A stretch of 50,571 nucleotides of DNA from Pseudomonadota bacterium (GCA_041179425.1 JBEGTL010000002.1:1-50571), one strand, 5' to 3'. Positions 140 to 50,571 are shown, counted from the first letter of the stretch. Program-made: numbers and translations. The notes: a model not told the origin generated them from the letters alone.

Positions 140-145
140 TAACCT
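140..145 (+). promoter_or_regulatory. -10-like TAACCT, 7 nt upstream of ATG 153
   Basis: Member of the recurrent TANNNT-5-7 nt-start codon pattern seen across the window. Confidence 0.4.
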
Positions 146-152
146 CTACGCC

Positions 153-602
153 ATGCCCTTTCTGGACATCGACTGGGACGTAGCTTGCGCTGCTTTTCAA
201 GCCTCGCCGAGAACCCTCTATCACTTTTGCCTGGATAACGGCTGGAGCTTGCGTCTCCAGAGCGCGATGTTCGTGCAGCTCAAGCGGCGCGGTCTGGCTT
301 CCTTAGTGCCCAAGCCTGGTCATGCTGGTCGAACCTATCGAGAGCCACGCCCTGTGGCGGAGAAGAAGCCGCGAGGTCGTCCGCGCACCCCGCTGCGCCC
401 TGGTCAGCGTCAGGTGGTGGCCTCTGCGCTGCTCGAGGCGGGCTCACTGAGAGCGCTAGCGAAACTATTGGGAAAGAGCCCGACGATGGTGGCGCAGTAT
501 CGGGACCTGGAGTTGGGGCCGCCGGACGAAAACTGGTTGCAGCTGCTGAACTTACACCTAGCGCACACCCGGAGGGAGCGAAGCGACCAAGGGTGTGCCT
601 GA
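153..602 (+). CDS. DNA-binding protein with an AT-hook-like core (KKPRGRPRTP) and a probable HTH
   Basis: 149-aa ORF with good GC3. RGRP AT-hook core. C-terminal SLRALAKLLGKSPTMVAQY looks like an HTH. First gene downstream of the repeat. Confidence 0.55.
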   Translation: MPFLDIDWDVACAAFQASPRTLYHFCLDNGWSLRLQSAMFVQLKRRGLASLVPKPGHAGRTYREPRPVAEKKPRGRPRTPLRPGQRQVVASALLEAGSLRALAKLLGKSPTMVAQYRDLELGPPDENWLQLLNLHLAHTRRERSDQGCA

Positions 603-678
603 GAGGAGCGCCGCGCGCGCCCGCGCGTGGACAAAGAATCGTGGTGGACACCGGACTGCAAGACGGGTAATCTCAGGG

Positions 679-1182
679 ATGGTGAATAAACACAACGTTG
701 CGACAGCACCCGAGGTTGTCTTTTTCAGCCTGGGGCGCAGGTGGCACCCAGCGCAAGAGGTGTGCGTCGACTACGCCGACTGGCTGCTACTGAAGCCGTA
801 CCGCTGGTACCTGCAGGCGCCAACCGAGCGCAACTTGTGCTGGTACGTCTGGGGCAGGCCGGAGGGCTCTTACGCGCTGCTGCATCGGTGGCTCATGCGT
901 GCGCCCAAAAGCAGGGAGGTGGACCACCGGGATGGCAACGGGCTCAACTGCTGTAGGCATAACATGCGGTTGACGGACCGTCCCCAGAATGCAGCGAACC
1001 GCAAAAGTTCCAATCCACTGGGCCGAGGCGTGTCGTACGTGGACGGGCGAGGCTTCAAGGCCCAGATTCAACATCATGGAGTGCACCACAATCTAGGCTT
1101 CTTCTCTTCAGCTGTGGAAGCGGCTGACGTTTACACCCAAGCCGCGCTCCGTTTGCGCGGAGAACTGGCTAGCAACAGATGA
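679..1182 (+). CDS. HNH endonuclease with C-terminal AP2-like domain
   Basis: HRDGNGLNCCRHNMRLTDRPQNAANR (HNH_3-type) followed by GVSYVDGRGFKAQIQHHGVHHNLGFFSSAVEAADVY (AP2-like). Start chosen at ATG 679, preceded by TAATCT at 668-673; the ORF is open from 595. Confidence 0.8.
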   Translation: MVNKHNVATAPEVVFFSLGRRWHPAQEVCVDYADWLLLKPYRWYLQAPTERNLCWYVWGRPEGSYALLHRWLMRAPKSREVDHRDGNGLNCCRHNMRLTDRPQNAANRKSSNPLGRGVSYVDGRGFKAQIQHHGVHHNLGFFSSAVEAADVYTQAALRLRGELASNR

Positions 1183-8536: not shown

Positions 8537-9236
8537 CACCCCCACCTCGCGAGCGCAGCTCGGCCCGCGCTCACCTGAGACCATCGCGCGGCGCTACGGC
8601 GCCGTCATGTCGGCCTTCAGCGCGCGCGCTCAGGCGCGCATCCAGAGCTGGATGGCGGAGGGCTCGGTGCTCGACCGCGTGCCTGCGCTGCGCGCGGACC
8701 TGTACGAGCTGGCCCAGCGCACGGAGAAGTCCGCGCGCGCGGTCGGAGCCGCCGTCACCCGCCTCGGCAGGGTCGACGTCGCGCGCATGCTACGCCTCAA
8801 GCCCATTCGCGGCTCGCACGAGGACGAGACTGCCTTCCTGGACCGCTGGTCGGAGCACCAGGTCGGCTTGCTGCGCAACGTCGTAGACAGGCAGCTGAAG
8901 GCCATCACGGACCCGATGGAGAACGACCCGCTCGGGAAGCTCTGGATTGTGCGCAACCACGCCCAGCTGGTCGCCCACAACGAGACCTTCGCCCTGAGCG
9001 ACGACGTCATCGGGTTCTGGTCGGCGCAGGCCGGCGAGGACGAGTACATCTGGCTGACCCGCGGCGACGACCGCGTGCGTCCCGGGCACGCCGTGCTCGA
9101 CGGCACGGTGCAGCGCAGCGACTCTCCGCCATTCACGGGGTCTCGCGAAGGCAACAACCACCCAGGGCACGCCCCCGGGTGTCGCTGCCAGCGCATGCCA
9201 CACCGGGCACTCGAGGTCGGGCGCCCGCTCCGGTGA
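8520..9236 (+). CDS. Head morphogenesis protein (Mu F / SPP1 gp7 family)
   Basis: RPGHAVLDGTV...PGHAPGCRCQ C-terminal signature. Follows the portal gene. Confidence 0.8.
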   Translation: MTSRRNTPTSRAQLGPRSPETIARRYGAVMSAFSARAQARIQSWMAEGSVLDRVPALRADLYELAQRTEKSARAVGAAVTRLGRVDVARMLRLKPIRGSHEDETAFLDRWSEHQVGLLRNVVDRQLKAITDPMENDPLGKLWIVRNHAQLVAHNETFALSDDVIGFWSAQAGEDEYIWLTRGDDRVRPGHAVLDGTVQRSDSPPFTGSREGNNHPGHAPGCRCQRMPHRALEVGRPLR

Positions 9237-9248
9237 TAGACTGAGGGC

Positions 9249-10958
9249 ATGGCAAGCTCGCTCGGCTCGATTCCCGAAGATTTCCCCATCCATGGCGTCT
9301 ACGAGTGCCCCCTGGTCGCCGAGCTGCCGTCGCTCATTTACGGCATGCGCGCGACCTTCCGCGAGCTCATCTGGGACGCGGAGGGAGGCTTCGCCGACGA
9401 CTGGCGCGACCGCAGCTCGGTCGAGGGCACGCCCGAGGACGGGTATACGTTCCGTATCAGCCGTCGGGCTTTCAGTGCGGCCAACATGGGCATCTTCGCC
9501 GCTGGCGCGGGCTCCGGTGGCGGTGGCGTTTCGGGCGGCGCAACCGTCGTCCTGGCGCTCGCGCCCGGCCTGAACTCGAACGTCGAGATTCCCGACGTCG
9601 CGACCGTGAGCGTGGTGGCCGCGACCGGCGACACCGACACGGTGCTCGACTCCATTCTGCGCCCGCCACCCGCTGGCGGAGGTGACCCCGAGGCCACCGA
9701 CTACCACTCGGTCATCTTCGTCAACGACCAGGCCACGAACTCACTCATCCTGCGCCCCGGCAAGGGCACGCCTTTCGCAGACCTCGTGACGCCCGACGGC
9801 GAGGACTACGTACTCGGCCCGCGCGAGGGCGCGGTGCTGGTATATCTGCACTACGTGAGCGCCTGGACCGTGCACCCGCTCGCCAAGCCCGACACCGGTG
9901 ACGCTGTCAGCCTCCACGGCACGGCAGTCCCCGCCCTGTCCGACGGTGTGCTGACGTCCGCAAGTGGAGTTCTGTCATGGGCGGCCGCTGCTGGCACCGG
10001 AGACGTCATCGGCCCGGCTGGTGCTGTGGCGGACCGCGTCGCCGTCTACAACGGCGCCACCGGCAAGCTCATCAAAGATGGCGGCAAGACGATTGCAGCG
10101 GTGGAGGCCAGCGCTGCAGCTACGGCAACCGCGGCCGCTGCCACGTACACCGACACCCACGGACTCTGGTTCACGGGTCTGGACACCGACTTCACTGTGC
10201 TACCTGCCCAGACCATCATCACCGGCGCGAACGTCATCGGTGGTAAGACGTGGACCGGCGTGGACATCGGTACGTACTCGAACTTGTTCGCCATCCAGCT
10301 GGGAGTCGGTCTGCAGATGAAGGCCAACGCGCTGAACAGCGGCATGTACAACACGTTCCGCACTATGTCCCACATCAAGATTCGCCTCTCTGACATCTGC
10401 CCTGGAATCCACTTGAAGTCGCGCGTGCGCATCACCGCGGTCCAGGAGACCACTGGGGAGACTGCGGGCTCCGAGGTCACGCAGGTGGCACTGGGCTCGT
10501 GGACCCACCACGCCACCGACGTCAGCATGGTGCGCCTGGTGAACGGCTTCATCACGGGAGCGAACCAGAACCGTGTCGACGGGTGGCGCACAAGCACGTA
10601 CGTGGACAATGACGACACGGCGCAGCCAGCCGCGAACCGTCAGGGGCAGATTCAGCTCGACTCCATCCCGGAGTGGCAGGGACACTTCCTGAGCTCCCCG
10701 TACACGCTCGCCACACCAGTGGTGTGGAACGACCCCAAGACGTTCGTCAAATCGAGGGGCTTCGACTTCCTGGCTAAGTACCGCGCAGTGCTCGGCGTTT
10801 CGGGAAACGGATTTCTGCAGACCAACTACGCTGACGCCCCGGTGAACCGCGATGTCACCGAACTGGCAGTGCTGGTGTCGGTGTCCACCGGCAACACCGC
10901 CAACAACACGTCATTGCTGGGGTCACTGCGGGCCCTCCGCATCGAGTACACAAAGTAG
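9249..10958 (+). CDS. Fibre-like structural protein encoded in the head module
   Basis: 569 aa. GPAGAVADRVAVYNGATGKLIKDGGKTIA is a motif common in phage fibre proteins. TAGACT lies 6 nt upstream of the ATG. Confidence 0.55.
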   Translation: MASSLGSIPEDFPIHGVYECPLVAELPSLIYGMRATFRELIWDAEGGFADDWRDRSSVEGTPEDGYTFRISRRAFSAANMGIFAAGAGSGGGGVSGGATVVLALAPGLNSNVEIPDVATVSVVAATGDTDTVLDSILRPPPAGGGDPEATDYHSVIFVNDQATNSLILRPGKGTPFADLVTPDGEDYVLGPREGAVLVYLHYVSAWTVHPLAKPDTGDAVSLHGTAVPALSDGVLTSASGVLSWAAAAGTGDVIGPAGAVADRVAVYNGATGKLIKDGGKTIAAVEASAAATATAAAATYTDTHGLWFTGLDTDFTVLPAQTIITGANVIGGKTWTGVDIGTYSNLFAIQLGVGLQMKANALNSGMYNTFRTMSHIKIRLSDICPGIHLKSRVRITAVQETTGETAGSEVTQVALGSWTHHATDVSMVRLVNGFITGANQNRVDGWRTSTYVDNDDTAQPAANRQGQIQLDSIPEWQGHFLSSPYTLATPVVWNDPKTFVKSRGFDFLAKYRAVLGVSGNGFLQTNYADAPVNRDVTELAVLVSVSTGNTANNTSLLGSLRALRIEYTK

Positions 10959-10976
10959 GCGTGCTAACCTTCAGGC

Positions 10977-12050
10977 ATGGCACTTGAACGGTTCATTGAC
11001 CGCCGCGCAGGCAAGCTCTCCAACGTCCGCCGCACCCCGCAGGGTGGCTTCCTAGTCGACGCCACGCTCGCGAAGGTGGGCGTCATGGAGTATTGGACCA
11101 ACCCGAACTCGACGCCCCAGCCGACCAAGCTGGTAGTGCGCCGGTACAACCCCGCGACAACCCTGCAGGATGCCTGCCAGGGCGTGGCGGTGGCCCCGGT
11201 GACCATGGGCCACCCCAAGGAGTTCGTGGACACGGGCAACTACCAGAAGCTGGCCGCCGGGCACGTGGTGGGCATGCCGACGTTCGCGGACGGACACATC
11301 AAGGCGACCCTGGCCATCCAGGACGCCGCGCTCATCCGCGCCATCGAGCTCGGCGAGTGCCGCGAGGTCTCGATGGGCTACTACGCCGAGCACGACAACA
11401 CGCCGGGCGTCGCCGAGAATGGTGAAGCCTACGACGAATCTCGTGTCAAAATCGAATGGAACCACATCGCTGTGGTCCCGGCTGGCCGTGCGGGAAAGAC
11501 CGTGCGCCTCATGCTCGACAGCGCAGAAATCCCCCAGGAACCAGAGGAAACCATGCTCAGAATCGGCGACAAGGAAGTGGCAGCGGACGAGGCGCAGGGC
11601 GCTCTGGACGCGTTCTCGGGCCTCATGCAGGGCCAAGTGGCCAACCTCACGACCGAGCGCGACGCCGCGCGCGGCGAGCTCGCCGGCCTACAGGCACAGG
11701 TTGCCGAGCTGACCACGAAGCTTGCTGCGGCCGAGAGCGACAGCGCGCTCGATGCTCGCCTGGAAGCTCGCCTGGCTGCCGAGAAGGACGCCGCCGAGAA
11801 GGCAACGCGCCGCGCCAGCGTCGCCAAGCATTTCCCCTCCATCTCGCTTGACGGCCAGTCCGAGGACTTCGTCAACGGTCTGTTCGCTGCCATCCCCTCC
11901 GAGCCCACGGGCGAGGTCGATGAGCTGGTGAACGTGCGCACGGTGGTGCCGCCCACCACGGACTCCAAGCCGAAGCCCGAGTCCGCTGAGGACGCTCGCC
12001 GTCGGGTAGAGGCTGAGCAGCGCGACGAGTGGAAGCGCTCCGCGGAGTAA
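10977..12050 (+). CDS. Scaffold/prohead protease-like protein (DUF2213-like)
   Basis: Position between portal/MuF and capsid. The C-terminal half is a long Ala/Glu coiled coil, typical of scaffolds. Confidence 0.65.
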   Translation: MALERFIDRRAGKLSNVRRTPQGGFLVDATLAKVGVMEYWTNPNSTPQPTKLVVRRYNPATTLQDACQGVAVAPVTMGHPKEFVDTGNYQKLAAGHVVGMPTFADGHIKATLAIQDAALIRAIELGECREVSMGYYAEHDNTPGVAENGEAYDESRVKIEWNHIAVVPAGRAGKTVRLMLDSAEIPQEPEETMLRIGDKEVAADEAQGALDAFSGLMQGQVANLTTERDAARGELAGLQAQVAELTTKLAAAESDSALDARLEARLAAEKDAAEKATRRASVAKHFPSISLDGQSEDFVNGLFAAIPSEPTGEVDELVNVRTVVPPTTDSKPKPESAEDARRRVEAEQRDEWKRSAE

Positions 12051-12134
12051 GTGCTACGCTTCACGTATCGCCGGTGAGTTGTCACCGGCCAAACAAGGGC
12101 CGACGTGCTCTGACGTCGGAGAAAAGGTAACAAC

Positions 12135-13046
12135 GTGCCGGTTATTCAGTCTACTTTTGGTCAGCAAGTCTTCTCGATGCTCCCTGGCACGTTCCAGGGC
12201 GCGTACGAAGAGCGCTCCGTTTCTCCGAAGTTCGCACGCGGTCTGCTCCGCGCCGGCCTGGGTGCCTTCAAGGTCCAGGGCTTCGGCGGCGCCGGCTCGC
12301 GCAACAGCACCGACCCGGGCGAAGTGTTCCAGATTCCCTCGCCCTCGGGCGCAGTGGACGTGGACGCCATCGGCTCCGCGGTGTCCTCGGCGACGGGTCT
12401 CAAGACCGTCGGCAGCGGCGTGACCGCTGGCGTGGTCACCAGCGACATGCAGCCCGCGCGCAAGCTCACCGTGACGTTCGACGCGAGCACCGACTGGGAT
12501 GCGACCGTCGCCGTCATCACGTACGTGAACAACGAGGGCAAGACGGTCTCGGAGAACCTTGCCGTCGCTACCTCCACCACGGCGACCACGGTTGGTTACG
12601 CCAAGTCGTTCGTCTCGCTGAGCATTCCCGCTCAGACGGGCTCGGGCGGCACCGCGACCATCGGCATCTCGGCGATGAGCGCGCTCACCATCGCTGACTT
12701 CGCGGGCGTCGTCCTGCGCCAGTCCATCAAGACGATGGTCAACCCCTCGAACCTGTACATCGGGCCGACCTCCGATGGCATCACCAACGCCAACACCCTG
12801 GCTCACTACGTGGACGGTGACACCGTTCCCTGCGTGCGTCGCGGTCTCCTGAGCGTGTTCACCGAGGAAGCTACCTCGGACATGGACCCGGTCTACATGC
12901 GCATCGCAAGCGGCGCTGGTGGCTCTCTGCTCGGCGCCTTCCGCAACGATGCGGACACGGCCAGCTGCGTGCTCGTGACCGGCGCGCGCTTCGTGCGCGA
13001 CCAGGCGAGCGGCGTGGGCGTGGTTCACCTCGGCCTCGGATACTAA
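12135..13046 (+). CDS. Head decoration/structural protein
   Basis: GTG start with GGAGAAAAGG upstream. Lies directly before the capsid gene and is followed by a terminator. Confidence 0.55.
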   Translation: MPVIQSTFGQQVFSMLPGTFQGAYEERSVSPKFARGLLRAGLGAFKVQGFGGAGSRNSTDPGEVFQIPSPSGAVDVDAIGSAVSSATGLKTVGSGVTAGVVTSDMQPARKLTVTFDASTDWDATVAVITYVNNEGKTVSENLAVATSTTATTVGYAKSFVSLSIPAQTGSGGTATIGISAMSALTIADFAGVVLRQSIKTMVNPSNLYIGPTSDGITNANTLAHYVDGDTVPCVRRGLLSVFTEEATSDMDPVYMRIASGAGGSLLGAFRNDADTASCVLVTGARFVRDQASGVGVVHLGLGY

Positions 13047-13105: not shown

Positions 13106-13141
13106 GGTGCGCCACCTTGCACTCAGGCAAAAGTCGCGTGC

Positions 13142-13147
13142 TAGGCT
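13142..13147 (+). promoter_or_regulatory. -10-like GTGCTAGGCT upstream of the capsid gene (57-nt leader)
   Basis: Same GCTANNNT motif as at other gene starts. Lies between the terminator and the capsid gene. Confidence 0.45.
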
Positions 13148-13204
13148 ACTAACAGTTTGCAAGCCGCCTCTCACTGGCGGTCCCAACAAGAGGAACCACC
13201 TACC

Positions 13205-14197
13205 ATGATTCGCACCTATGATGAGAAGGCGGCCGAGCTGTTTGCGGACATCTCGGCAGTACCCGAGTACTTCGTTCGCGACAGCGCAAGCTGGGCCAAG
13301 GATGCCCAGGAGACGCTCGTCTTCGCCCGTCAGCTTGAGACCATCAAGCGCCGGATGTACGAGGTCAAGTACCCCGAGCTGAAGAACCGCAAGTTCGTGC
13401 CCGAGAGCAACGAGGCTGGCGAGAGCACCGAGTACCTGACGTTCCGCATCTGGCAGGACTACGTCATGGCCAAGGTGTACGTCAACTACATGACGGACAT
13501 CCCGATGGTCACGGCCTCGGGCTCCGAGGTCTCGGTCAAGCCCTACTCGGTGGTCGACGGCTACCAGTACAGCGTGGACGACCTCCGCAGCGCGCGCGCC
13601 GCGAACCTCCCCCTCATCGACAAGCTCGCGAAGGCCGTCAAGACCGGCATCGAGCTCGCGCGCGAGCAGCACGTCGCGTTCGGCACGCCCGAGGCGAACA
13701 GCTACGGCCTGCTCAACCACCCGAACGTCACGCTCATCACGCTGCCCACCGGCACGTGGTCGGGCGCCACGGCAGAGCAGATTCTGGCCGACCTCAACCA
13801 CCTCGTGACCACGATGGTCGACGGCACGAACGAGCTGTTCGCTGGCGACACCCTGGTCATGTCCGTGGCGGCCAAGCGTCTCCTCGAGACCAAGCTGATG
13901 AGCGCTGGCAACAGCGCAGGCGTGTCGGTCCTCGACATGTTCCGCAAGCAGAACGATGGCATCGCCATCGAGACCTGGACGCTCCTGAACGACGCGAACG
14001 CAGCCGGCACCGGCCCGCGCATCCTGTTCTACAAGCGCAGCCCCGAGGTCCTCGAGTTCGAGGTGGCCATCCCCTTCGAGCAGATGCCCGTCGAAGTTCG
14101 CTCGCTCACGTACTCGGTGGTCTGCCGCGCGAAGTGGTTCGGCGTCCAGATTCAGTACCCGGCAGCGCTCTCGTACGCCGACAACGCTGGCGTCTAA
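13205..14197 (+). CDS. Major capsid protein (DUF2184-like)
   Basis: The N-terminal region ...LVFARQLETIKRRMYEVKYPELKNRKFVP...NYMTDIPMV matches the DUF2184 capsid pattern. Flanked by terminators. The ORF is open from 13157. Confidence 0.8.
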   Translation: MIRTYDEKAAELFADISAVPEYFVRDSASWAKDAQETLVFARQLETIKRRMYEVKYPELKNRKFVPESNEAGESTEYLTFRIWQDYVMAKVYVNYMTDIPMVTASGSEVSVKPYSVVDGYQYSVDDLRSARAANLPLIDKLAKAVKTGIELAREQHVAFGTPEANSYGLLNHPNVTLITLPTGTWSGATAEQILADLNHLVTTMVDGTNELFAGDTLVMSVAAKRLLETKLMSAGNSAGVSVLDMFRKQNDGIAIETWTLLNDANAAGTGPRILFYKRSPEVLEFEVAIPFEQMPVEVRSLTYSVVCRAKWFGVQIQYPAALSYADNAGV

Positions 14198-14336: not shown

Positions 14337-14376
14337 GGCTTGAGCGGGGTAGCGGTGGCGTGAGAGCATAGTCCTC

Positions 14377-14916
14377 ATGGGCAAGACGGACAAACGCACC
14401 GCGGAGGAGCACCGCACCAAGTACAAGGAGTACTATCAGCGCGTCATCAAGCCGGTGAGAGAGGCTGCTAGGCCTCTGTGCAGCGCCCCCGGGTGCACGT
14501 CAAAAACCATATACATCCGCGGCAAGTTCTGCAAAGAGCACCGAGACCTCCAAGCACTAAAAGTGGTGGCGGACACCACCTCCTGGTACCACAAGAATCG
14601 CGAAAAGGTAACGGACCGGAGGCTGCAGCGGGCTTACGGAATCACCTTGAAGCAAGCTCGGGAGATGCTGGCTTCTCAGGGCGGTGTCTGCGCTATCTGC
14701 AAGAACTTGCTGGAGGACCAGGCGTGTGCAGGCAAGTCTCGAAGAGGCACGGTCATAGACCACTGCCACGAGACTGGACTCGTGAGGGGAGTCCTGTGCA
14801 GCTTGTGCAACAAAGGTTTGGGCCACTTCTCAGATAACCCTGAGTTTTTGGGCGCTGCCATAAGCTATCTGGCAGGAGCCACACAAAACCCTTGCCTCGG
14901 GGACGGCGCGCGCTAG
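14377..14916 (+). CDS. Recombination endonuclease VII family protein (free-standing)
   Basis: CAICKN...DHCHETGLVRGVLCSLCNKGLGHF signature. Codon usage is visibly less GC-rich than in its neighbours. Confidence 0.8.
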   Translation: MGKTDKRTAEEHRTKYKEYYQRVIKPVREAARPLCSAPGCTSKTIYIRGKFCKEHRDLQALKVVADTTSWYHKNREKVTDRRLQRAYGITLKQAREMLASQGGVCAICKNLLEDQACAGKSRRGTVIDHCHETGLVRGVLCSLCNKGLGHFSDNPEFLGAAISYLAGATQNPCLGDGAR

Positions 14917-14925
14917 CATCGGGGT

Positions 14926-15465
14926 ATGAGTGACAACTACAGCGTGCGCGGTATCGAGAACCACACCTCGAGACTCATCATTTTGCCCCCCACGTACACC
15001 TTCCCCAAGGGAGTGCGGCTCGTCCCCGGTCTCAACCGCGTCCCGGAGCTCTACTTCGAGGAAGCCGAGCAGTACGAGCTGCCCGAGCGCGAAATCGAGA
15101 GCTTCGGCCGCAAGGTCAAGGTGCCCGCGCGCAAGCCCATCACGGAGGCGCTCGCCGACCTGCAGAAGCCGCTCTACCGCGCCGAGAACAAGGCCACCGG
15201 CGCCAGCGCCAGCGCGCGCCGCTTCCGTGGCGTGAACGGCCCCTACTCGGGACCGCAAATCACCATCTACCGTGACCCGCTCGCCATCGAGGGCCGCGAG
15301 GACGGGCCACCCCCGCCCGACTTCCTCCCCGAGGACAAGAAGCAGGCGAGAGCCATCATCGAGGTGACCACCGACCGAGCCGCGCTGAAGAAGTGGGCAG
15401 GCCAGGGTCGCGGGGAAATCGCGCAGGCAGCTGCCGCGAAGCTGTTGGCGCTCGGCAATGGCTAA
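14926..15465 (+). CDS. Hypothetical protein
   Basis: 179-aa ORF. TAGCAT lies 6 nt upstream of the ATG. Confidence 0.55.
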   Translation: MSDNYSVRGIENHTSRLIILPPTYTFPKGVRLVPGLNRVPELYFEEAEQYELPEREIESFGRKVKVPARKPITEALADLQKPLYRAENKATGASASARRFRGVNGPYSGPQITIYRDPLAIEGREDGPPPPDFLPEDKKQARAIIEVTTDRAALKKWAGQGRGEIAQAAAAKLLALGNG

Positions 15466-15625
15466 AAAGTTCAACCACAAGCGCACATGGCTGTGCGAGG
15501 AGTGCGGTGCGGCGCAAGCCGAGTCCGACAATCCGCCCGACAGCTGCCAGTGGTGTGCGTGCCAGTTCTTCGACAACCTGCATGACGTCCTGAAGGCGCG
15601 CGCGCCCGAGCAGCTGGAAGCCTGA
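15458..15625 (+). CDS. Small zinc-ribbon protein (55 aa), absent from the ORF track
   Basis: MAKKFNHKRTWLCEECGAAQAESDNPPDSCQWCACQFF... has CxxC...CxxC. High GC3. Overlaps the upstream stop. Confidence 0.5.
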   Translation: MAKKFNHKRTWLCEECGAAQAESDNPPDSCQWCACQFFDNLHDVLKARAPEQLEA

Positions 15626-15636
15626 TAGACTCCAGG

Positions 15637-15930
15637 ATGGCCGTCCCTGTCATCACCGTTGCCGCCTTCCTGGAGATGTTCCCCGAGTTCGAGGAAGCCG
15701 ACGAGGCACTCGTGCTCAAGCACATCGCCATGGCCGCCACGCGCACCGCCTCCGGCATCTACACCGCGGAGCAGCAGGAGCAAGCGGTCGGCCTGAAGGC
15801 GGCCACGCTGCTCTTGAAGAGCCCGTGGGCGCGCAAAGCGCGGCTGGTCGATGACACGCAGGCGTTCATCTGGGCGGGAGAGCTCTACGAGCTGCAGCGG
15901 TCCGCCACGATGGGCCTGCGCAACACCTAA
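15637..15930 (+). CDS. Head-tail connector-like protein (DUF4054-like)
   Basis: ITVAAFLEMFPEFEEADEALVLKHIAMA N-terminal pattern. TAGACT lies 5 nt upstream. Confidence 0.55.
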   Translation: MAVPVITVAAFLEMFPEFEEADEALVLKHIAMAATRTASGIYTAEQQEQAVGLKAATLLLKSPWARKARLVDDTQAFIWAGELYELQRSATMGLRNT

Positions 15931-16362: not shown

Positions 16363-16372
16363 ATGCTAGGTT
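16363..16372. promoter_or_regulatory. Overlapping divergent -10-like hexamers (TAGGTT plus, TAGCAT minus)
   Basis: ATGCTAGGTT: TAGGTT lies 6 nt before ATG 16379. On the other strand TAGCAT precedes a 20-nt leader with GGAGGAG before ATG 16342. Confidence 0.4.
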
Positions 16373-16378
16373 GAAGCA

Positions 16379-17101
16379 ATGCTCAAGGTCAAGACCAAAG
16401 TAAAGGAGAAGGGCCCCGGCTTTGCGAAGCTCATCAGCGAGCTCGCGGGTGGCACCATCACCATCGGCGTGCAGGGCGAAGAGGCCACTATGCAGCACCC
16501 GAACACCGACCTCTCGGTGGGCGAGCTCGCGGCCGTGCACGAGCTCGGTCTGGGCGTCAAGGAGCGCTCGTGGCTCCGCAGCTGGTTCGACCAGAACCAG
16601 GCGCGCATCCAGGCCGAGACGCGCGCTGCGCTGGCGCAGGTGGCCGTCCGCCGCGTCTCGCGCAAGCAGGCACTCGAGGAGCTGGGCTACCGCTGGACCG
16701 ATGAGATTCGGGAGAACATCCAGATGGGCCGCATCACGCCCCCGCTCGCCCAGGCGACCATCGACGCCAAGGGTCACGACATCCCGCTCCTCGAGAGCGG
16801 CGTGCTGATGAACTCCATCACCTTTCGTCTGTTCCTTTCGCAAATCAAGAGCGTCGCTGACCCGTCGCTACGCGCTGCCCTGCGCGCGGGAGTGGCCCGC
16901 AAGAAGAAGACGCCCGGTGTGCGCATGCGCCAGCACCGTCAGGTGCGCTCCCAGATGGCGAAGGCGGCCAACCTACTGTGGATGTGGCGCAAGCTCAGGA
17001 AGGCGCTCACACAGAAGCGCGGCAGCGACTTCAGGAACCACGGCTTCAAGAACTCGGGGCGGGGCGGGCTCACCGGCCGCGCAGGTTTCCCTCGACGGTA
17101 G
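16379..17101 (+). CDS. Minor structural / head-tail joining protein
   Basis: 240-aa ORF in the connector region. The function is assigned from position only. Confidence 0.45.
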   Translation: MLKVKTKVKEKGPGFAKLISELAGGTITIGVQGEEATMQHPNTDLSVGELAAVHELGLGVKERSWLRSWFDQNQARIQAETRAALAQVAVRRVSRKQALEELGYRWTDEIRENIQMGRITPPLAQATIDAKGHDIPLLESGVLMNSITFRLFLSQIKSVADPSLRAALRAGVARKKKTPGVRMRQHRQVRSQMAKAANLLWMWRKLRKALTQKRGSDFRNHGFKNSGRGGLTGRAGFPRR

Positions 17102-19698: not shown

Positions 19699-19721
19699 CG
19701 TAAGGCGGGTCACCACTATGC

Positions 19722-19727
19722 TACGCT
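19722..19727 (+). promoter_or_regulatory. -10-like TGCTACGCT upstream of the sheath gene (34-nt leader with hairpin GGGTAG/CTACCC)
   Basis: Same motif family. Lies in the intergenic region 19699-19761. Confidence 0.4.
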
Positions 19728-19761
19728 CAGGGTAGTTCCCCCCTACCCGAGGCTCACCATC

Positions 19762-21117
19762 GTGGCAGACGACATCAACAGCATCGTAGCGGTCGCCATT
19801 ACGGCGAACTCGAAGACGCCCTCCCAGGTTGGCTTCGGGACCCCCCTCATCCTTACCTATCACTCCGTGTTCGCTGACAACTACCGTGTTTACAGCGACG
19901 TCGCTGGCATGGTGAGCGACGGCTTCACGAGCTCGCACGAGGCGTACCGCAAGGCAGCGGCCGCGTTCGCGCAGAATCCCGCACCCGAGCAGGTTGTGGT
20001 CGGCCGCCTGACGTCGGCGCCCAGCTTCGTGACGCAGGTCAAGGTGACCTCCGCGGTCGAGGCCCAGCACATCAAGTTCAAGGTCATCGAGCCCGTCGCG
20101 GGCACCATCCAGCAAATCGACCGCACCATCCCCGCGGCGAGTTCGACCACGGCAGAAGCGACCGCCATAGAGATTCTCGTCGAGGCGTTTGCCGGCGTCG
20201 ACAGCTCGTCCTCTACCGACACCATCAGCATCACGCCCACCGTCGCTGGCCGCAAGGTCCACGTCTACGACTGCGTGAACTGCGCGGTCAAGGAAACCAC
20301 GGCGGACGCGAACTACTCCACCGTGCTCGACTCGCTCTCGACCGAGTACAACGATTGGTACTTCATCTCGCTCGACTCCGCCTCCCCCGCGAACGCCGCC
20401 GACGTGGCAGCGTGGGTGCTCGCGAACAAGAATGTGAACCCGAAGTTCTACTTCGTCGCCACCTCCGACACCGACCTACTCGCCGGCACGGCCACCTCGG
20501 GCACGTTCGGTGAGTTCGCAACGGCTGCGGAGTCCACCTCGAACGACCACGTGGTCTCGCTGTACGTGCCGAACTCGCAAGAGGGCGCGGACATCGCATG
20601 GGCATCGGTCATCGGCGTGCAGACCCCGGGCTCTATCACGGCAGCCCTCAAGACGCTCGTTGGCGTCACGCCGGGCTCGCTCACGACCACGCAGCGCACC
20701 AACCTCGAAGCCATCAACGTCAACCACTACCAGACCGTGCGCGGCCTGAATGTGACGCGTCAGGGCAAAGTCGGCAGCGGCGAGTGGATTGATGTGGTCC
20801 ACGGCATCGACGCGCTCAAGAGCGACCTCCAGGGCGCAGTGTTCGGGCTCCTCGCGGGCTCGGGCAAGGTGCCGTTCACGCCCGCCGGCCTGAACATCAT
20901 CGAGGCGACCATCAAGGGAGTGCTCAAGCGGTACGAGGGCTCGGACGACCAGCCCGGCCTCATCGCACCCAAGAGCTCGCGCGTGGTGATGCCGAAGTTC
21001 AGCACCATCACCACCACCGACAAGGCCAACCGCGAGCTCCGCAACGTTCGGTTCTCGGGCATCCTGGCGGGAGCGATTCAGTTCGTCTCGCTGCTCGGGA
21101 CGCTCACCAACGCCTGA
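19762..21117 (+). CDS. Tail sheath protein (DUF3383-like)
   Basis: 451 aa. N-terminus INSIVAVAITANSKTPSQVGFGTPLILT. A tube gene follows, after an inserted cassette. Confidence 0.75.
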   Translation: MADDINSIVAVAITANSKTPSQVGFGTPLILTYHSVFADNYRVYSDVAGMVSDGFTSSHEAYRKAAAAFAQNPAPEQVVVGRLTSAPSFVTQVKVTSAVEAQHIKFKVIEPVAGTIQQIDRTIPAASSTTAEATAIEILVEAFAGVDSSSSTDTISITPTVAGRKVHVYDCVNCAVKETTADANYSTVLDSLSTEYNDWYFISLDSASPANAADVAAWVLANKNVNPKFYFVATSDTDLLAGTATSGTFGEFATAAESTSNDHVVSLYVPNSQEGADIAWASVIGVQTPGSITAALKTLVGVTPGSLTTTQRTNLEAINVNHYQTVRGLNVTRQGKVGSGEWIDVVHGIDALKSDLQGAVFGLLAGSGKVPFTPAGLNIIEATIKGVLKRYEGSDDQPGLIAPKSSRVVMPKFSTITTTDKANRELRNVRFSGILAGAIQFVSLLGTLTNA

Positions 21118-21536: not shown

Positions 21537-21571
21537 ACCCAGATGGTCGCCCAGCGCGCGCTACGCTGTCA

Positions 21572-23056: not shown

Positions 23057-23062
23057 CCCCCG

Positions 23063-30089: not shown

Positions 30090-30099
30090 TGATTCGGGC

Positions 30100-30786: not shown

Positions 30787-30808
30787 CCTGGGGTGCTACC
30801 TTGAGCTC

Positions 30809-32002
30809 ATGGCTGGTTTGACTACCGCGGGGCTCGAGACGAAGTCCCTGGATGAAATAAACACGGAGCTTGACGACGGCATCCACGCCGACGTGAGCCC
30901 CACCCTCAACCTGTCGGCCACCGCGCCCATTGGGGAGTACAAAGGCGTCACCGCCAGCCAGCTCGCCCAGCTCTGGGAGGCGATGCAATCGCTGTGGGCT
31001 AGCTGGGACCCTTCGCAGGCGACGGGCGCCGCGCTAGACCGGCTGGGAGCCCTCACGGGCACGCGCCGCCGCGCTGCCACCAAGTCCAAGGTCCTGATGA
31101 CGCTGGGTCTCAGCGCCGGTACCTACGCCGCGCAGTCCCTCATCGTCTCCAAGGTGGGTGACTCCACCGCGCGCTTCTCGAACGACGTCGGGGTCACGAC
31201 CGCTGGCGGCACCGTCACGGGCGTGGCGTTCACGGCCGAGAGCACCGGTCCTACCCAGGCGGCCGCCGGCACGCTGACCGTGGTCGCCAACAACCCTGGC
31301 GGCTTCAATAGCGCCACGAACCCGAGCGACGCTCTGGTAGGCTCGCTCGCGGAGAGCAACGCGGCGTACCGCAACCGGCGAGACCTGGAGCTCGCCAAGA
31401 AGGGATCGACCACCGCGGACGCCATTCGCGCGGACCTACTGAGCGCCCTCAACACCCGCGGCGAGCCGCTGTTCGACTTCGTCTCGGTCATCGAGAACGA
31501 CACCGACAACGTGGTGGACGGGCGCAACCCACACAGCTTCGAGACCTTGGTGGTAACGGCCGCGGACGACGTCATCATCGGCGCTGCCATCCTGGCGGTC
31601 AAGCCGGTGGGCATCCGGGCATACGGCTTGACCGATTCGGTTGACGTGCTCGACTCCCAGGGCAACCCCCACACCATCGGCTGGACCTTCCCCGACGACG
31701 TGCTCATCTACATCTCGGCGCAGGTCAACTACATCGCCGGCAAGTACGTGGGCGACGACGTGGTCAAACAAGCGCTTGTGGACTGGGGCGAGACCGAGCT
31801 ATCGGTCGGCTACGACGTGCTCGTGGCCAAGCTGACCCAGCTCATCATGGACCTCGGCGGCGTGCAGGACACGTACGTCACCATCGACGACGCGCCAGGC
31901 CCGACCGCCAACGCGAACTTCGTCATCGGCTCGCGAGAGCTCGCGCGCATCGCGCTGGAGCGCATCGTCCTCGTGGGCGTCCCCCAGGCAGGCCACCCGT
32001 GA
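30809..32002 (+). CDS. Baseplate J-like protein
   Basis: N-terminal pattern ...WDPSQATGAALDRLGALTGTRRRAATKS. TACCTT lies 6 nt upstream. Confidence 0.75.
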   Translation: MAGLTTAGLETKSLDEINTELDDGIHADVSPTLNLSATAPIGEYKGVTASQLAQLWEAMQSLWASWDPSQATGAALDRLGALTGTRRRAATKSKVLMTLGLSAGTYAAQSLIVSKVGDSTARFSNDVGVTTAGGTVTGVAFTAESTGPTQAAAGTLTVVANNPGGFNSATNPSDALVGSLAESNAAYRNRRDLELAKKGSTTADAIRADLLSALNTRGEPLFDFVSVIENDTDNVVDGRNPHSFETLVVTAADDVIIGAAILAVKPVGIRAYGLTDSVDVLDSQGNPHTIGWTFPDDVLIYISAQVNYIAGKYVGDDVVKQALVDWGETELSVGYDVLVAKLTQLIMDLGGVQDTYVTIDDAPGPTANANFVIGSRELARIALERIVLVGVPQAGHP

Positions 32003-34961: not shown

Positions 34962-34981
34962 GAGCCTGCTAGGCTCAGTGC

Positions 34982-35452
34982 ATGAGCCGCTTTCGTTCCG
35001 ATGAAATCACGCTGCTACTCCCGAGCTTCCAGCCGTACGTGCAGGCCGTGCTCGACGACATGACCGCGCAGGGATTCAAGCCCATCCTATTCGACGGTCT
35101 GCGGACGCCAGCCGAGGCGCTGCGCAACGCCAAGCGCGGCACCGGCAAGGTGCAATCGCCGCACCTGTACGGGCTCGCCGCAGACGTCATCTGCGATGAC
35201 CACGGGTGGAGCTGCCGCGAGAAGAAGTGCAAGTTCTACGCGAAGCTCGTGGCCGCCGTGCGCTCGCGCGGGCTCATCACCGGCGCAGACTTCCACAACG
35301 CGCAGGGCAAGCCCATGGTCGACGAGCCGCACTTCCAGGGCCTGCCGCCCGCGCAGGAGCGCAAGGTGCGTGAGCTCGGCATGAGCGACGAGTCCATCCC
35401 CGAGCGCGATGCTATCGTCGCCGCTTGGCTGAAGCAGCACGCTAAGCTCTGA
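34982..35452 (+). CDS. Peptidase M15 (VanY/D-Ala-D-Ala carboxypeptidase-like) endolysin
   Basis: The SPHLYGLAADV motif and a C-terminal HFQ motif. TAGGCT lies 7 nt upstream. Confidence 0.75.
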   Translation: MSRFRSDEITLLLPSFQPYVQAVLDDMTAQGFKPILFDGLRTPAEALRNAKRGTGKVQSPHLYGLAADVICDDHGWSCREKKCKFYAKLVAAVRSRGLITGADFHNAQGKPMVDEPHFQGLPPAQERKVRELGMSDESIPERDAIVAAWLKQHAKL

Positions 35453-47878: not shown

Positions 47879-49209
47879 CCAAACGATATATTATCAGCTG
47901 CGCGGTGAACGACACGCGCGTGCACCCCGGGTTCTTCGCCTCGATGAAACAGTACGCGAAGCACAACGGTGCCGAGCTCCTCATCGTCGCGGCGAAGTAC
48001 AAGAACCCCACCGCGAAGCGCGGCTCCGCCAAGAAGCTGCGCGACGAGACCTACGCCGCGCAGGTGGTCCCGTACCTGACGAACGATGAAATCAAGCTCG
48101 GGCCGCAGCTCACGCTGTTCGCGAACCTCCCCATCCAGCCGACCGCCAGCAACCCGACCTCAGGCCTGGAGGTCTTCTGCAAGTCGAGCAGCGCCATCGT
48201 GGGCCACGTCAAACGCGCGATGCAGGTGGTGCCCACGGAGCACCTCACGCCCCGCGTACTGTGGTCGACGAGCGCGTGCACGGTGGCGAAGTACAGCCGC
48301 TCGCGCGCTGGCTTGAAGGCCAAGAAGCACCACGTCATCGGCGCGGTGGTGGTCGAGGTCAAACGGAACGGCAAGTTCTTCATCCGCAACGTCACGGCGA
48401 ACAGCGACGGCTCGTTCTCCGACCTCGACACGTTCTACACGCCCACGGGCGCAGTGGAGAACGACAACGCCCTGAGCGTCACCGCGGGAGACATCCACGT
48501 TGGCCAGGATGACGAGCGCTCGTTGCGCGCTCTCGAACAGCTGGTTGGCCTGATGCAACCCGACCACTTGGTGGTGCATGACGTGCTCGACTTCGATGCG
48601 CGCTCGCACCACCGCCGCTCCCCTCAGGAGCGCTACGAGCGCCGTTTCCACACCGTGGACGCAGAGCTCGATGCCAACGCTGCCTTCTACCAGCGCGTGC
48701 TGCGCTGGGCCGTGCAACGCGACGTGGTGGTGGTCGAGAGCAATCACCACGAGCACCTGATGCGCTGGCTGCGCGAGTTCGACGTCGAGAACGACGTTGG
48801 CAACGCGCCTACCTACCACCGCATGTGGTCCGACCTCTACACCGAGTTCGACCGCACCGGCGAGTGGGCCAACCCGTACGAGCGCGCGATGCGCCAGCGC
48901 GGCGTGGGCGCACGCGTCCGCTTCCTGAAACGGAGCGACAGCTTCAAGCTGGCCTCAGTAGAGGGCGGCTTCCACGGCGACGATGGCGTGTCAGGCTCTC
49001 GCGGCTCCATCTTGGCCTACACCAAGCTCGGGTGTAAGGTTACTATCGGCCACTCTCACACTCCGGGAATCCGAGATGGAGTGTTTCAAACGGGAGTGAC
49101 AGGTTCGCTGGACATGGGATACAATCGTAGACCCACAACCTGGCTTCATGCCCACGTGGTTCTCCACAGAGACGGCAAGAGGCAGATGGTGGTGGTAGTA
49201 GAGGGGTAG
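47875..49209 (+). CDS. Calcineurin-like metallophosphoesterase with an uncharacterised N-terminal domain
   Basis: GDIHVGQDD, ESNHHEH and IGHSHTPG motifs in the C-terminal half. GC drops in the last 170 nt or so. Confidence 0.55.
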   Translation: MTKRYIISCAVNDTRVHPGFFASMKQYAKHNGAELLIVAAKYKNPTAKRGSAKKLRDETYAAQVVPYLTNDEIKLGPQLTLFANLPIQPTASNPTSGLEVFCKSSSAIVGHVKRAMQVVPTEHLTPRVLWSTSACTVAKYSRSRAGLKAKKHHVIGAVVVEVKRNGKFFIRNVTANSDGSFSDLDTFYTPTGAVENDNALSVTAGDIHVGQDDERSLRALEQLVGLMQPDHLVVHDVLDFDARSHHRRSPQERYERRFHTVDAELDANAAFYQRVLRWAVQRDVVVVESNHHEHLMRWLREFDVENDVGNAPTYHRMWSDLYTEFDRTGEWANPYERAMRQRGVGARVRFLKRSDSFKLASVEGGFHGDDGVSGSRGSILAYTKLGCKVTIGHSHTPGIRDGVFQTGVTGSLDMGYNRRPTTWLHAHVVLHRDGKRQMVVVVEG

Positions 49210-49336
49210 TTCTACGCGAACGCTGCCTGATGGATTGAGCTTGCGGTATCGCGAGCGCTGGTAGAGACTCTCAGAGATGCACGTACCAAGCTGCTGGGGC
49301 TGGCCGGGCTGTGACGTCTGCCAAGAGGAGAAGAGC

Positions 49337-50338
49337 ATGTTCAAAGAAGGCGACATAGTGAAACTTGCGGACGACGCTACCGACCTAAATGACGATAACG
49401 TCGGCGGTTGCATCGGGACCATCACCGAGGTGGATGAGGGCGGCTTCGACGGCGGGCTGCCGTACAAGATTCTGGTCAACGGCATCGAGACCTGGTACCT
49501 GACCGCGGAGGTCGACGGCTTGGTAGGTCGCCCGTCCACGCAGCTTGCAGTCGCTGTCGGCGACCGCGTGCGCGTCTCCCAGACTCCCGCCCACGGCGCG
49601 TTCAAGCCGAACAACGGAGCCATCATCGCGGTGGTGGAGAGGTTCCTGGAGAACGGCAACGTCCTGGTCGAGGCCATCGAGGGCGACGACCGCTGGGATG
49701 GCGTGTCGCAACAGGTCCAACACCATGACCTGACGCGCATCGACCGGACGCCCACCATCAACCCACCGCCCATCCGCGAGGGCTTCGGCGCCATCCCGCT
49801 GGACACCTATCACGGCCGCAAGGCGGACGCTGGCAAGGCTGACTACACCATCCTGCCGGCGGAGGCGGTGGAGACCGTTCTTCAGCAGGAGTCCTGGCTC
49901 TACTCAGAGCACAACGAGGACGGGATGGTGGCAACGCCCAACTTCCAGGACGCCCTGGCGGCCTCGGTGGAGGCGCTGTTCGCCTACCGCACCAGCGGCG
50001 AGCTGGAGGACCTCCTGAACGCCTACGTCTTCTCGTGCCGCGACCGCGTCGTCGAGTCGCTGGCGGGCGTCGTCGGCATCCTCGAGTACGGCGTGCTCAA
50101 GTACGCGCGTGACAGCTGGCGCGAGGTCCCGGAAGGGGAGGACCGCTACTTCAGCGCCGCTCTACGCCACGCCTACGCCCTGAGCGCGGGACATGGGTAC
50201 GATGTGCCGGCCGGCGCCGAGGACGCCGCCAGCAAGCCCACAGCGGACGGGAAGCACAGCGGAATGCACCACTGGGACCACTTCCGGTGTAACGTGCTAT
50301 TCCTCATCGGCCTGCACCTGGATAACTCCGCGGAATAA
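49337..50338 (+). CDS. Tandem SH3-like domains fused to a DUF5664 / MazZ-like dNTP pyrophosphohydrolase-like domain
   Basis: GDIVKL... and GDRVRV... repeats. Then KADAGKADYTILP...LEYGVLKYARDSWREV...RYFSAALRHAYA...HSGMHHWDHFRCNVLFLI. AGGAGAAGAGC lies before ATG 49337. Confidence 0.5.
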   Translation: MFKEGDIVKLADDATDLNDDNVGGCIGTITEVDEGGFDGGLPYKILVNGIETWYLTAEVDGLVGRPSTQLAVAVGDRVRVSQTPAHGAFKPNNGAIIAVVERFLENGNVLVEAIEGDDRWDGVSQQVQHHDLTRIDRTPTINPPPIREGFGAIPLDTYHGRKADAGKADYTILPAEAVETVLQQESWLYSEHNEDGMVATPNFQDALAASVEALFAYRTSGELEDLLNAYVFSCRDRVVESLAGVVGILEYGVLKYARDSWREVPEGEDRYFSAALRHAYALSAGHGYDVPAGAEDAASKPTADGKHSGMHHWDHFRCNVLFLIGLHLDNSAE

Positions 50339-50380
50339 CTCGCGGCGCCGTAGTGGCGGGCGGTTCTGTTACTCTCCAGG

Positions 50381-50571
50381 ATGCCGCCCGCCATCCGCAT
50401 CCGCAGAACCGCCGACCTCGAGCTCATCAAACGCCTGGACAAGACCTGCTTCGGGGACGAGGACAGCCTGGCAGAAGTGCTGGGCTGCTCCGATTGGTGG
50501 GTCGCGGAGAGCCGCGCTGGCAGCTCCTGGGCGCCCGCCGGCTACGCTGGTGCATCGCTGTCCGACGGCGA
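50381..50571 (+). CDS. GNAT-like N-acetyltransferase (3' truncated by the window)
   Basis: The N-terminus IRIRRTADLELIKRLDKTCFGDED...WWVAE is typical of GNAT N-termini. TACTCT lies 5 nt upstream. Confidence 0.4.
   Translation, partial: MPPAIRIRRTADLELIKRLDKTCFGDEDSLAEVLGCSDWWVAESRAGSSWAPAGYAGASLSDG

Follow-up and report, generated by a model that had tools for sequence, protein, structure and literature searches.

Many late promoters of phage T4 consist of a -10 element only, with one before most late genes or small gene groups; their motif, TATAAATA, is read by gp55, gp33 and gp45, and the mRNAs carry leaders with a Shine-Dalgarno (SD) site. In Deinococcus deserti, 47% of transcription start sites (TSSs) lie on the start codon with a -10 element directly upstream (PMC4007540), and in D. 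radiodurans this leaderless mechanism has been shown by mutating the -10 element and its spacing (PMC12340547). Leaderless promoters with TGnTA have been described in Bradyrhizobium japonicum, where only 320 TSSs are 0-10 nt from start codons, and a GC-extended -10 (GCTATA), whose GC extension proved important by mutation, occurs in RpoD promoters of Caulobacter and Bradyrhizobium (PMC4842269). Only a few alphaproteobacterial genomes had any leaderless genes in a prediction survey, and their share in these averages about 6% (PMC3160421). Among phages, the middle and late mRNAs of phiYS40 are reported as mostly leaderless in the part of PMC3594737 that cites Sevostyanova 2007, and the middle and late promoters of P23-45 are extended -10 elements without a -35 that escape the block on -35 recognition by phage gp39 (PMC3950348). 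Here we describe a box, tGCTAnnCT, directly upstream of start codons in the late module of an uncultured myovirus contig of 50.6 kb and 65% GC (JBEGTL010000002.1, 1-50571; "the window" is this whole stretch of 50,571 nt). On the sequence evidence below, this box and a second, -35-bearing class are quite probably sigma-70-family promoters that host RNA polymerase would use on the start codons themselves, giving leaderless mRNAs. Deinococcus, actinobacteria and Thermus phages already provide examples of this mechanism; the window would be a further one, with an unusual density of boxes and a two-tier layout conserved in its relatives.

With Deinococcus-Thermus and Actinobacteria (D. deserti, D. 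radiodurans, M. tuberculosis, Streptomyces) the window shares TANNNT 5-7 nt before ATG or GTG without an SD site or a widespread -35, and, within one genome, the coexistence of such genes with leadered ones that have GGAG-type SD sites (PMC4007540, PMC12340547, PMC3160421, PMC3898074). Unlike theirs, its box has a near-invariant G-14 and C-13 and a C at -8, and it sits in a phage whose homologues point to Gram-negative hosts. Like phiYS40 and P23-45, the window phage appears to use extended -10 promoters without a -35 for middle or late genes, but its composition is mesophilic, it has no sequence relationship to either phage, and it lacks a homologue of the P23-45 proteins gp39 and gp76. Alphaproteobacterial RpoD promoters likewise have GC directly before TA, and B. 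japonicum has TGnTA at leaderless genes. The many -10-only late promoters recall T4, from which the window differs in motif and in T4's SD leaders. We counted boxes at annotated starts of three other phages:

phiC31 (64% GC, Streptomyces): 1 of 52 annotated starts
P23-45 (Thermus), first 50 kb: 3 of 90 annotated starts, including the known P68 promoter
RcRhea (65% GC, Rhodobacter, alphaproteobacterial host): 0 of 44 annotated starts

The density in the window, about 30% of starts, is well above these values (0-3%). The gene-by-gene promoter density in the structural module that an earlier note on this sequence had described is real, and it is unusual against these phages; its contrast with late genes "normally in long polycistronic operons" was overstated, given the late promoters of T4 and the case of phiYS40.

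Hexamer placement in the window and its relatives

The earlier note had listed 18 combinations of TANNNT hexamer, spacer and start codon. All are present in the sequence, with one spacer corrected (6 nt, not 7, at ATG34982); of the alternative starts 21572 and 21575, homology favours 21575, with a spacer of 7. We called genes without regard to the motif, using a codon model and the longest-ORF start (the first start after an in-frame stop in the open reading frame, ORF; n = 56 genes). TANNNT at a spacer of 5-7 nt preceded 11 of these 56 genes, against 34 of 3236 (1.05%) of all ATG/GTG (binomial p = 1.7e-11), and its offset peaked sharply, with 8 genes at -12 and 3 at -11. Because TAA and TAG are stop codons, and are in frame when at -12, they favour ORFs whose start is the first after a stop. 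Non-called ORFs of at least 60 aa, which control for this bias, had the hexamer in only 6 of 268 cases (2.2%; Fisher p = 9e-6 against called genes), two of which (153, and the minus-strand 23056) are likely to be genuine genes. Enrichment over a shuffled background, the check that had been proposed, held for placement at starts and failed for the raw whole-window count, which is near expectation: TANNNT-N6-RTG has 16 occurrences against 8.3 ± 3.0 in dinucleotide-shuffled sequence, and with N5 in place of N6 the counts are 8 and 8.6. Fifteen of these 24 N5 and N6 matches fall at called gene starts, where about 0.5 would be expected.

We then turned to six syntenic relative loci (L001-L003 and L005-L007; GC 61-67%) with the collection's own gene calls, made by neither ourselves nor the author of the earlier note. 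The hexamer at spacer 5-7 precedes 45 of their 162 called starts, against 0.8-2.4% of all ATG/GTG per locus (p between 1e-6 and 1e-13 for each locus except L001). It stands at the same orthologous genes despite protein identities of 37-70% and flanking DNA that cannot be aligned. N-termini align 1:1 with those of orthologues for 9249, 10977, 14926, 15637, 17411, 23079, 43711 and 50381. Conservation by family, with the window included and N-termini aligned in this way, is as follows:

15637, head-tail adaptor-position gene: 7 of 7 genomes
17411 family: 7 of 7 genomes
10977, DUF2213: 6 of 7 genomes
9249 family: 4 of 4 genomes
23079: 4 of 6 genomes
24885: 3 of 4 genomes

Chance, or an artefact of picking starts by their hexamer, has a practically negligible probability and is already refuted. 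It could draw on the whole-genome counts and on the stop-codon bias described above, but it would have to produce the 10-30-fold enrichment seen alike with motif-blind starts, with the control ORFs that share the bias and with third-party calls in six genomes, and a box kept at orthologous genes.

Expectation maximisation (EM) without seeding on the 162 upstream 24-mers of the relatives put tGCTAnncT on top, in line with the motif search that had been suggested; on the window's own 56 upstream regions, EM did not reach the motif with the seeds sampled. The relatives' logo has G-14 in 98%, C-13 in 82%, T-15 in 49% and C-8 in 64% of sites; A-11 and T-7 are at 100% by construction, being invariant through site selection, and were recovered independently by EM. 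The window's 18 sites have G-14 in 83% and T-15 in 56%, so that the observation that most are preceded by GC or TGC stands. When the relatives' position weight matrix (PWM) was run on the window, 17 of its 23 plus-strand matches lay upstream of genes (13 at spacer 5-7, 4 leadered), against 0 of 8 minus-strand matches at a gene; in the reciprocal search, 37 of the 42 plus-strand matches of the window PWM in the relatives were upstream of genes.

The dense layout is specific to the late module. Hexamers precede 28% of the relatives' starts there, and in the replication and early regions of three relatives (L014-L016) only 6 of 88 starts (7%); most starts in these regions have a strong AGGAGT SD site. 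The minus-strand early blocks of L014 and L015 have a very uniform SD site and spacing, AGGAGTAnnnAC-ATG, and L014 repeats an upstream element, TTTTTGTTGCTGCACACATGT, before two genes (4099 and 1008).

The box at 16379 occurs only in the window, where a 450-bp inverted insert parts the gene from the partner with which it is translationally coupled in the relatives. The broken coupling together with the gene's own box amounts to a natural experiment favouring a promoter role. Genes 21575 and 23079, which lie downstream of minus-strand genes, likewise carry boxes of their own.

Predicted promoter classes and layout of the late module

By its sequence, tGCTAnnCT is an extended -10 element, TGnTAnnnT, with a fixed C at -13: the TG at -15/-14 is there, and sites preceded by GC or TGn mostly have background -35 scores (2-3 of 6) at 16-18 bp, although a few, like the L003 and L005 sites with TTGACC before CGCTACGTT, score higher. 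Matches of 5/6 or better to a -35 at 16-18 bp occur at 9 of 63 sites, against a background of 0.7%, and otherwise belong to a subset without the GC extension. We therefore distinguish two putative promoter classes. Class A is tGCTAnnCT, a predicted extended -10 without a -35, before virion and lysis genes. Class B is T(T/G)GACA-N17-18 with a weaker nAnnnT -10, predicted before early-region genes, homing nucleases and inserted minus-strand genes; its core consists of 153, 679 and 23056 (minus) with their counterparts in the relatives, which have no GC extension and TGGACA or TTGACA at 17-18 bp.

The class A sites, and two further boxes in the replication part of the window, are:

9234..9251 (+): class A, TGATAGACT, spacer 6, ATG9249 (569-aa virion-module protein), 10.9 bits; hexamer directly after the TGA stop of a Mu-F-like gene, and present at spacer 5-6 in all of the L002, L003 and L005 orthologues
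10962..10979 (+): class A, TGCTAACCT, spacer 6, ATG10977 (DUF2213 / Pa193_gp24-like), 12.5 bits; hexamer in 5 of 6 relatives
14911..14928 (+): class A, CGCTAGCAT, spacer 6, ATG14926; hexamer in the L003 and L005 orthologues; its TAG is the stop of the upstream gene, and TTGCCT lies 16 nt upstream
15623..15639 (+): class A, TGATAGACT, spacer 5, ATG15637 (97 aa, head-tail adaptor-position gene)
16364..16381 (+): class A, TGCTAGGTT, spacer 6, ATG16379, 11.4 bits
17397..17413 (+): class A, TGCTATCCT, spacer 5, GTG17411
21559..21577 (+): class A, CGCTACGCT, spacer 7 to ATG21575 (4 nt to ATG21572); L003 orthologue CGCTACACT-7-ATG
23064..23081 (+): class A, TGCTACGCT, spacer 6, ATG23079, 13.3 bits; hexamer in 3 of 5 relatives
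24871..24887 (+): class A, AGCTAAGCT, spacer 5, ATG24885 (538 aa, tape-measure position); hexamer in the L002 and L006 orthologues
30794..30811 (+): class A, TGCTACCTT, spacer 6, ATG30809 (baseplate wedge), 11.9 bits
33666..33684 (+): class A, TGCTAGAGT, spacer 7, ATG33682, 9.4 bits; start less certain because of in-frame GTGs upstream at 33655 and 33673
34967..34984 (+): class A, TGCTAGGCT, spacer 6, ATG34982 (M15 peptidase endolysin), 12.7 bits
43696..43713 (+): box, CTGTAAGCT, spacer 6, GTG43711 (helicase); L015 orthologue TGATACAGT-7-ATG with a 1:1 N-terminus, L014 without the box
50367..50383 (+): box, TGTTACTCT, spacer 5, ATG50381; L015 orthologue AGCTAGACT-7-ATG

GTG17411 is preferred over GTG17291 because the hexamer is there in 7/7 genomes. 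Gene callers that assume an SD site misplace starts in genomes of this kind, GTG17291 for 17411 being one example and an L001 start called 27 codons too far upstream another. A strong class A-type box (TGCTATCCT, 12.5 bits) also lies antisense at 47111-47119 (-), in the gap 47051-47121. No convincing ORF follows it, and an antisense or small RNA could be transcribed from it.

Putative -35-bearing promoters are:

116..155 (+): class B, TGGACA-18-TAACCT-7-ATG153
645..681 (+): class B, TGGACA-17-TAATCT-5-ATG679 (weak HNH match)
14340..14379 (+): class B candidate, TTGAGC-18-GAGCAT-7-ATG14377 (endonuclease VII-type homing nuclease)
16363..16392 (-): minus-strand promoter, TTGACC-18-TAGCAT, back to back with the plus-strand TAGGTT box
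21534..21572 (-): class B candidate, TTGACA-18-GACCAT-6-ATG21536 (152 aa, weak helix-turn-helix, HTH)
23054..23092 (-): class B, TGGACA-18-TAGCAT-6-ATG23056 (73-aa gene), back-to-back overlap with the 23079 promoter
24169..24207 (-): class B candidate, TTGACT-17-CAGTAT-7-ATG24171 (endonuclease VII-like homing nuclease)
30064..30102 (+): class B candidate, TTGACC-18-GATGAT-6-ATG30100
38315..38352 (+): class B-like, TTGCTT-17-TAATCT-6-GTG38350 (primase-polymerase/helicase)

The promoter at 16363..16392 would serve the two inserted minus-strand genes 16342-16097 and 16100-15927, the latter with a GTGA-overlap start, through a short GGAGGAG leader. Counterparts of 23056 in L003 (20895-) and L005 (17823-) have T(G/A)GAC(G/A)-17/18-TAGCAT-7-ATG and similar upstream sequence. 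Confidence in the 38350 promoter is lower because it is not conserved in L014-L016. The four candidates at 14377, 21536 (minus), 24171 (minus) and 30100 were not on the original list, and their -10 does not begin with T; the single promoter set proposed there was made of real sites but merged two classes and missed at least these members. A related claim, that genes without the hexamer are overlap-coupled or have GGAG-type sites, is true of many, but 15 of the 66 genes in our curated table have neither. At least 4 of those 15 have a -35 box and an nAnnnT -10 at a hexamer-like distance.

The motif also occurs well upstream of genes that have an SD site. These leadered copies, noted before at 12055, 13142, 19722 and 21824, are confirmed and are kept in the relatives:

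12052..12137 (+): leadered promoter, TGCTACGCT, 74 nt upstream of GTG12135 (decoration/cement), AAGG SD, 13.3 bits; motif 71-85 nt upstream in L002, L003 and L007
13069..13096 (+): terminator-like hairpin, 12 bp with T-tail, after the decoration gene and just upstream of the capsid promoter
13139..13207 (+): leadered promoter, TGCTAGGCT, 57 nt upstream of ATG13205 (major capsid), AGAGGA SD, hairpin in the 5' untranslated region (UTR), 12.7 bits; motif 53-59 nt upstream in 6/6 relatives
19719..19764 (+): leadered promoter, TGCTACGCT, 34 nt upstream of GTG19762 (sheath), GAGG SD; motif 29-33 nt upstream in the five relatives whose locus reaches the sheath gene, which is GTG-initiated in all five
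21176..21202 (+): terminator-like hairpin, after the sheath gene
21821..21859 (+): leadered promoter, TGCTAGGCT, 27 nt upstream of ATG21857 (tube), GAGG SD; motif 31-50 nt upstream in L002, L006 and L007

Judged by this placement, the motif is a promoter and not a translation signal, because the same 9-mer lies at conserved distances upstream of SD-led genes, away from the start codon. The proposal that it is a -10 element placed for transcription from the start codon is also borne out by its match to TGnTAnnnT, its strand specificity, its conservation at orthologues in seven genomes and the -35 box at some sites.

The capsid, decoration, sheath and tube genes have SD leaders and never the leaderless layout in any genome examined, and hairpin terminators occur only after the decoration, capsid and sheath genes, three of these four. 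The leaderless layout is usual for low-copy parts (adaptor-position, tape-measure-position and baseplate wedge genes, and the portal gene in four relatives), with DUF2213 as a possible exception. Roughly a third of the window's genes have such a site, 14 being of class A and about 8 of class B. The 16 class A boxes between 9.2 and 35 kb would divide the late module into a chain of short transcription units of 1-4 genes rather than one long operon.

In the capsid leader (13148-13204, and the 5' UTRs of L001-L007) a hairpin lies shortly before the SD site, for example ccggctcactatcagccgg and gccgcctctcactggcggt, and its position is conserved. Its sequence varies among the genomes while the pairing is maintained, and it may stabilise the mRNA or be regulatory.

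Proposed leaderless expression and competing explanations

At box-bearing starts the spacer is 5, 6 or 7 nt, within the 5-8 nt before a true N-terminus that leaderless initiation would call for. These spacers fit the known distance from a -10 element to the transcription start, which would put the purine of the start codon at that position. No SD site is found at 4-12 nt in any of the 18 hexamer genes of the window, as the earlier note had stated, or the 45 of the relatives, against 23 of 48 (48%) and 39% of the other genes; this absence is partly forced by geometry, as the hexamer fills the SD position. Start codons are ATG in 93% of hexamer genes and 79% of others. From the motif, its placement and conservation, the missing SD sites and the aligned N-termini we infer promoter activity dependent on a sigma-70-family factor of the host RNA polymerase, for both classes. 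Transcription would begin at the A or G of the start codon, or one or two bases from it, and the resulting leaderless mRNAs would be translated without an SD site. The capsid, decoration, sheath and tube genes, which encode the most abundant virion proteins, would use the same class A promoter and keep an SD leader of about 27-75 nt. If the 5' ends are confirmed, this would be a clear example of a phage setting virion-protein levels through a choice of leaderless or SD-led mRNA from one promoter type, and would show that dense leaderless layouts occur in late modules beyond those of Thermus phages.

Several points weigh against this account. The raw hexamer pattern is not over-represented genome-wide, and the case rests on placement and conservation. 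Terminators are few, so read-through RNA would likely hold these genes internally without an SD site, and translation may in part proceed from polycistronic RNA. The excess of C at -1 in hexamer starts over other starts (60% vs 50%) is not significant (p = 0.3). At 38350, 33682 and 43711, conservation of the site is weak or absent. G-14 and C-13 are tighter than in typical host promoters, which leaves room for a phage specificity factor among the ORFans.

That a phage-encoded factor of this kind, and not the unmodified host holoenzyme, reads the motif is possible but in our judgement doubtful. Such a factor, for example a divergent sigma-like protein (cf. T4 gp55) or a protein binding sigma-4 or the beta flap (cf. 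P23-45 gp39, T4 AsiA), would shift RNA polymerase late in infection from the -35-dependent class B to the -35-less class A. It would account for two promoter classes with differing gene sets, for the limitation of class A to the late module (28% of starts, against 7% in the relatives' replication and early modules) and for the unusual invariance of G-14 and C-13, and it has a precedent in P23-45, where middle and late extended -10 promoters escape gp39 inhibition (PMC3950348). L005 even has a Sigma70_r2 gene in a variable slot. However, that gene is not conserved and the window ORF in the same slot is unrelated; scans of about 60 window proteins against Pfam or PHROGs found no RNA polymerase and no sigma-like domain, including none resembling gp55, and tblastn with gp39 and gp76 as queries yielded no credible match in the window. 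The motif also differs from the T4 late motif, and an ordinary extended -10 needs no extra factor, although an ORFan analogue unrelated to gp39 or gp76 is conceivable. A less probable explanation, and on balance an unlikely one, is that the boxes are internal booster promoters and that translation proceeds mainly from read-through RNA, by termination-reinitiation or SD-independent initiation, the closeness of box and start reflecting tight packing into intergenic gaps of 9-22 nt rather than leaderless design. Many boxes do lie in very short gaps, touching or containing the upstream stop codon, and the scarcity of terminators suits this explanation; SD-independent translation clearly operates in this phage, because 10 genes are overlap-coupled without an SD site and 15 have neither. 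Yet the spacer stays at 5-7 nt where the upstream gap is 200-450 nt (16379, 17411, 21575, 23079, 24885) and packing pressure therefore cannot set the distance, and the same promoters keep conserved leader lengths before SD-led genes. We give very little credence to an RNA-level signal, whether one that enhances translation at SD-less starts or one at which polycistronic RNA is cut back to the start codon. The motif does occupy the place of the SD site and exclude it, but it also stands before SD-led genes at conserved positions, 27-85 nt away, agrees with TGnTAnnnT position by position, is accompanied at some sites by a -35 box with a spacing of 17-18 bp, and leaves the three middle hexamer positions free to vary, as in -10 boxes.

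As a bolder possibility, we tentatively propose a two-tier late code in a family of uncultured mesophilic myoviruses, probably with Gram-negative and possibly alphaproteobacterial hosts. Low-copy virion and lysis genes would be leaderless from -35-less tGCTAnnCT, the four high-copy genes would have an SD leader behind the same promoter (three of them with terminators), and early and replication genes would rely on strong AGGAGT SD sites. If this is true, transcription would become less dependent on the -35 at a time set by the phage, and translation might turn to leaderless initiation as has been proposed for phiYS40, all outside the clades in which leaderless expression is known to dominate.

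Host and gene content

The promoter signature had been taken as a hint at a host in Actinobacteria or Deinococcus-Thermus. This is not supported, though such hosts are still conceivable. The signature is not exclusive to these clades, as predicted leaderless genes are also found in delta-proteobacteria (16%) and Acidobacteria (13%) (PMC3160421) and the Bradyrhizobium and Caulobacter promoters named above resemble the box (PMC4842269), and the homologues are in phages of Gram-negative hosts: the capsid, portal and A1-like proteins match only phages of Proteobacteria, Bacteroidetes or cyanobacteria among the hosts listed. We surveyed the GC extension in host DNA, with few sites, on Deinococcus MP1 and Bradyrhizobium pBBta01. 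Candidate sites on D. radiodurans MP1 have G-14 in 47%, C-13 in 33% and T-15 in 7% (n = 15 sites only), with no TGC extension. An IVYWREL fraction (amino-acid composition) of 0.373 argues against a thermophile and suggests a mesophile, and the relatives encode an SspB-like protein. Searches for relatives gave no prophage in 185,579 species genomes and nothing in capsid scans of viral and genome contig sets, with a single protein or a 42-sequence alignment; homologues of the endolysin are all metagenomic, and the phage collection contained none. The GC-/TG-extended -10 grammar is itself a clue to the host of a lineage without a cultured member or prophage relatives.

Megablast of the window against the annotated phage collection gave no match. 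Capsid and portal are below 30% identity to annotated phages, none of them close, and metagenomic capsid homologues range from 74 to 43% identity. Pfam and PHROG scans identified a terminase with a LAGLIDADG insert, portal, DUF2213 protein, major capsid protein, DUF3383/E217-type sheath, a baseplate set (Dit-like, Pam3 gp18-like, E217 gp41-like and wedge proteins) and an M15 endolysin. The late module is followed by a minus-strand block including RusA and then by the replication module. Neither tRNAs nor known Rfam RNA families were found in the window.

The large terminase (3616-6132) is 838 aa long, with LAGLIDADG_3 at residues 296-350; this part is probably an intein or homing-endonuclease insertion, because the relatives' terminases are only about 490-545 aa. 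The product of 38350, an 849-aa ORFan with no PDB match, has conserved DxD, sxH, Walker A and DEE motifs, which indicate a putative primase-polymerase fused to a helicase; we had considered it as an RNA polymerase and dropped this on account of the same motifs. One homologue of it, P0151 (1291 aa), likewise has a LAGLIDADG domain. Free-standing homing-nuclease genes of endonuclease VII and HNH type are dispersed in the structural module at 14377-14916 (+) and 23749-24171 (-), and also at 679-1182, and every one of the window's scattered homing-nuclease genes has its own predicted -35/-10 promoter of leaderless type. Relatives L006, L007, L015 and L016 have other nucleases at other sites.

Between the sheath and tube genes every genome has a minus-strand gene, and these genes are unrelated to one another. 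In L005 (16152-16811, -) the gene in this slot encodes the 219-aa Sigma70_r2 protein and in the window (21078-21536, -) a 152-aa protein with a weak C-terminal HTH, which we rejected as a phage sigma factor since it is unrelated to the L005 protein. Upstream of the sheath promoter is a gap of about 500 nt (19211-19718) that the relatives lack, with only a weak minus-strand ORF (19380-19610) inside.

Four small genes convergent with the endolysin gene (35442-36109, -) may be a holin/spanin set. They include two single-pass membrane proteins of 37 and 46 aa and a Cys-rich protein of 55 aa whose signal resembles a lipobox (LALCS). Should this last protein be an o-spanin, an outer membrane would be expected in the host.

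MazG-like and dATP/dGTP diphosphohydrolase enzymes go with nucleotide-pool remodelling in some phages. The window encodes a MazG-like pyrophosphohydrolase (47121-47738) and a dATP/dGTP diphosphohydrolase N-terminal domain (PF18909; 49277-50338), and no base-modification gene was seen in it.

A perfect 122-nt inverted repeat (1-122 and 38080-38201) begins at the first base of the contig, which probably ends there because the repeat could not be resolved. Within the repeat, a near-consensus promoter, AGCTATATAATAGGG, precedes an ATG mini-ORF of four codons. Of the two copies, one is directed into gene 153 and the other into the RusA block on the minus strand. A direct repeat of CACCGATACCGAGCCGCGCAGCGGCG is also present in the intergenic region 38088-38340.

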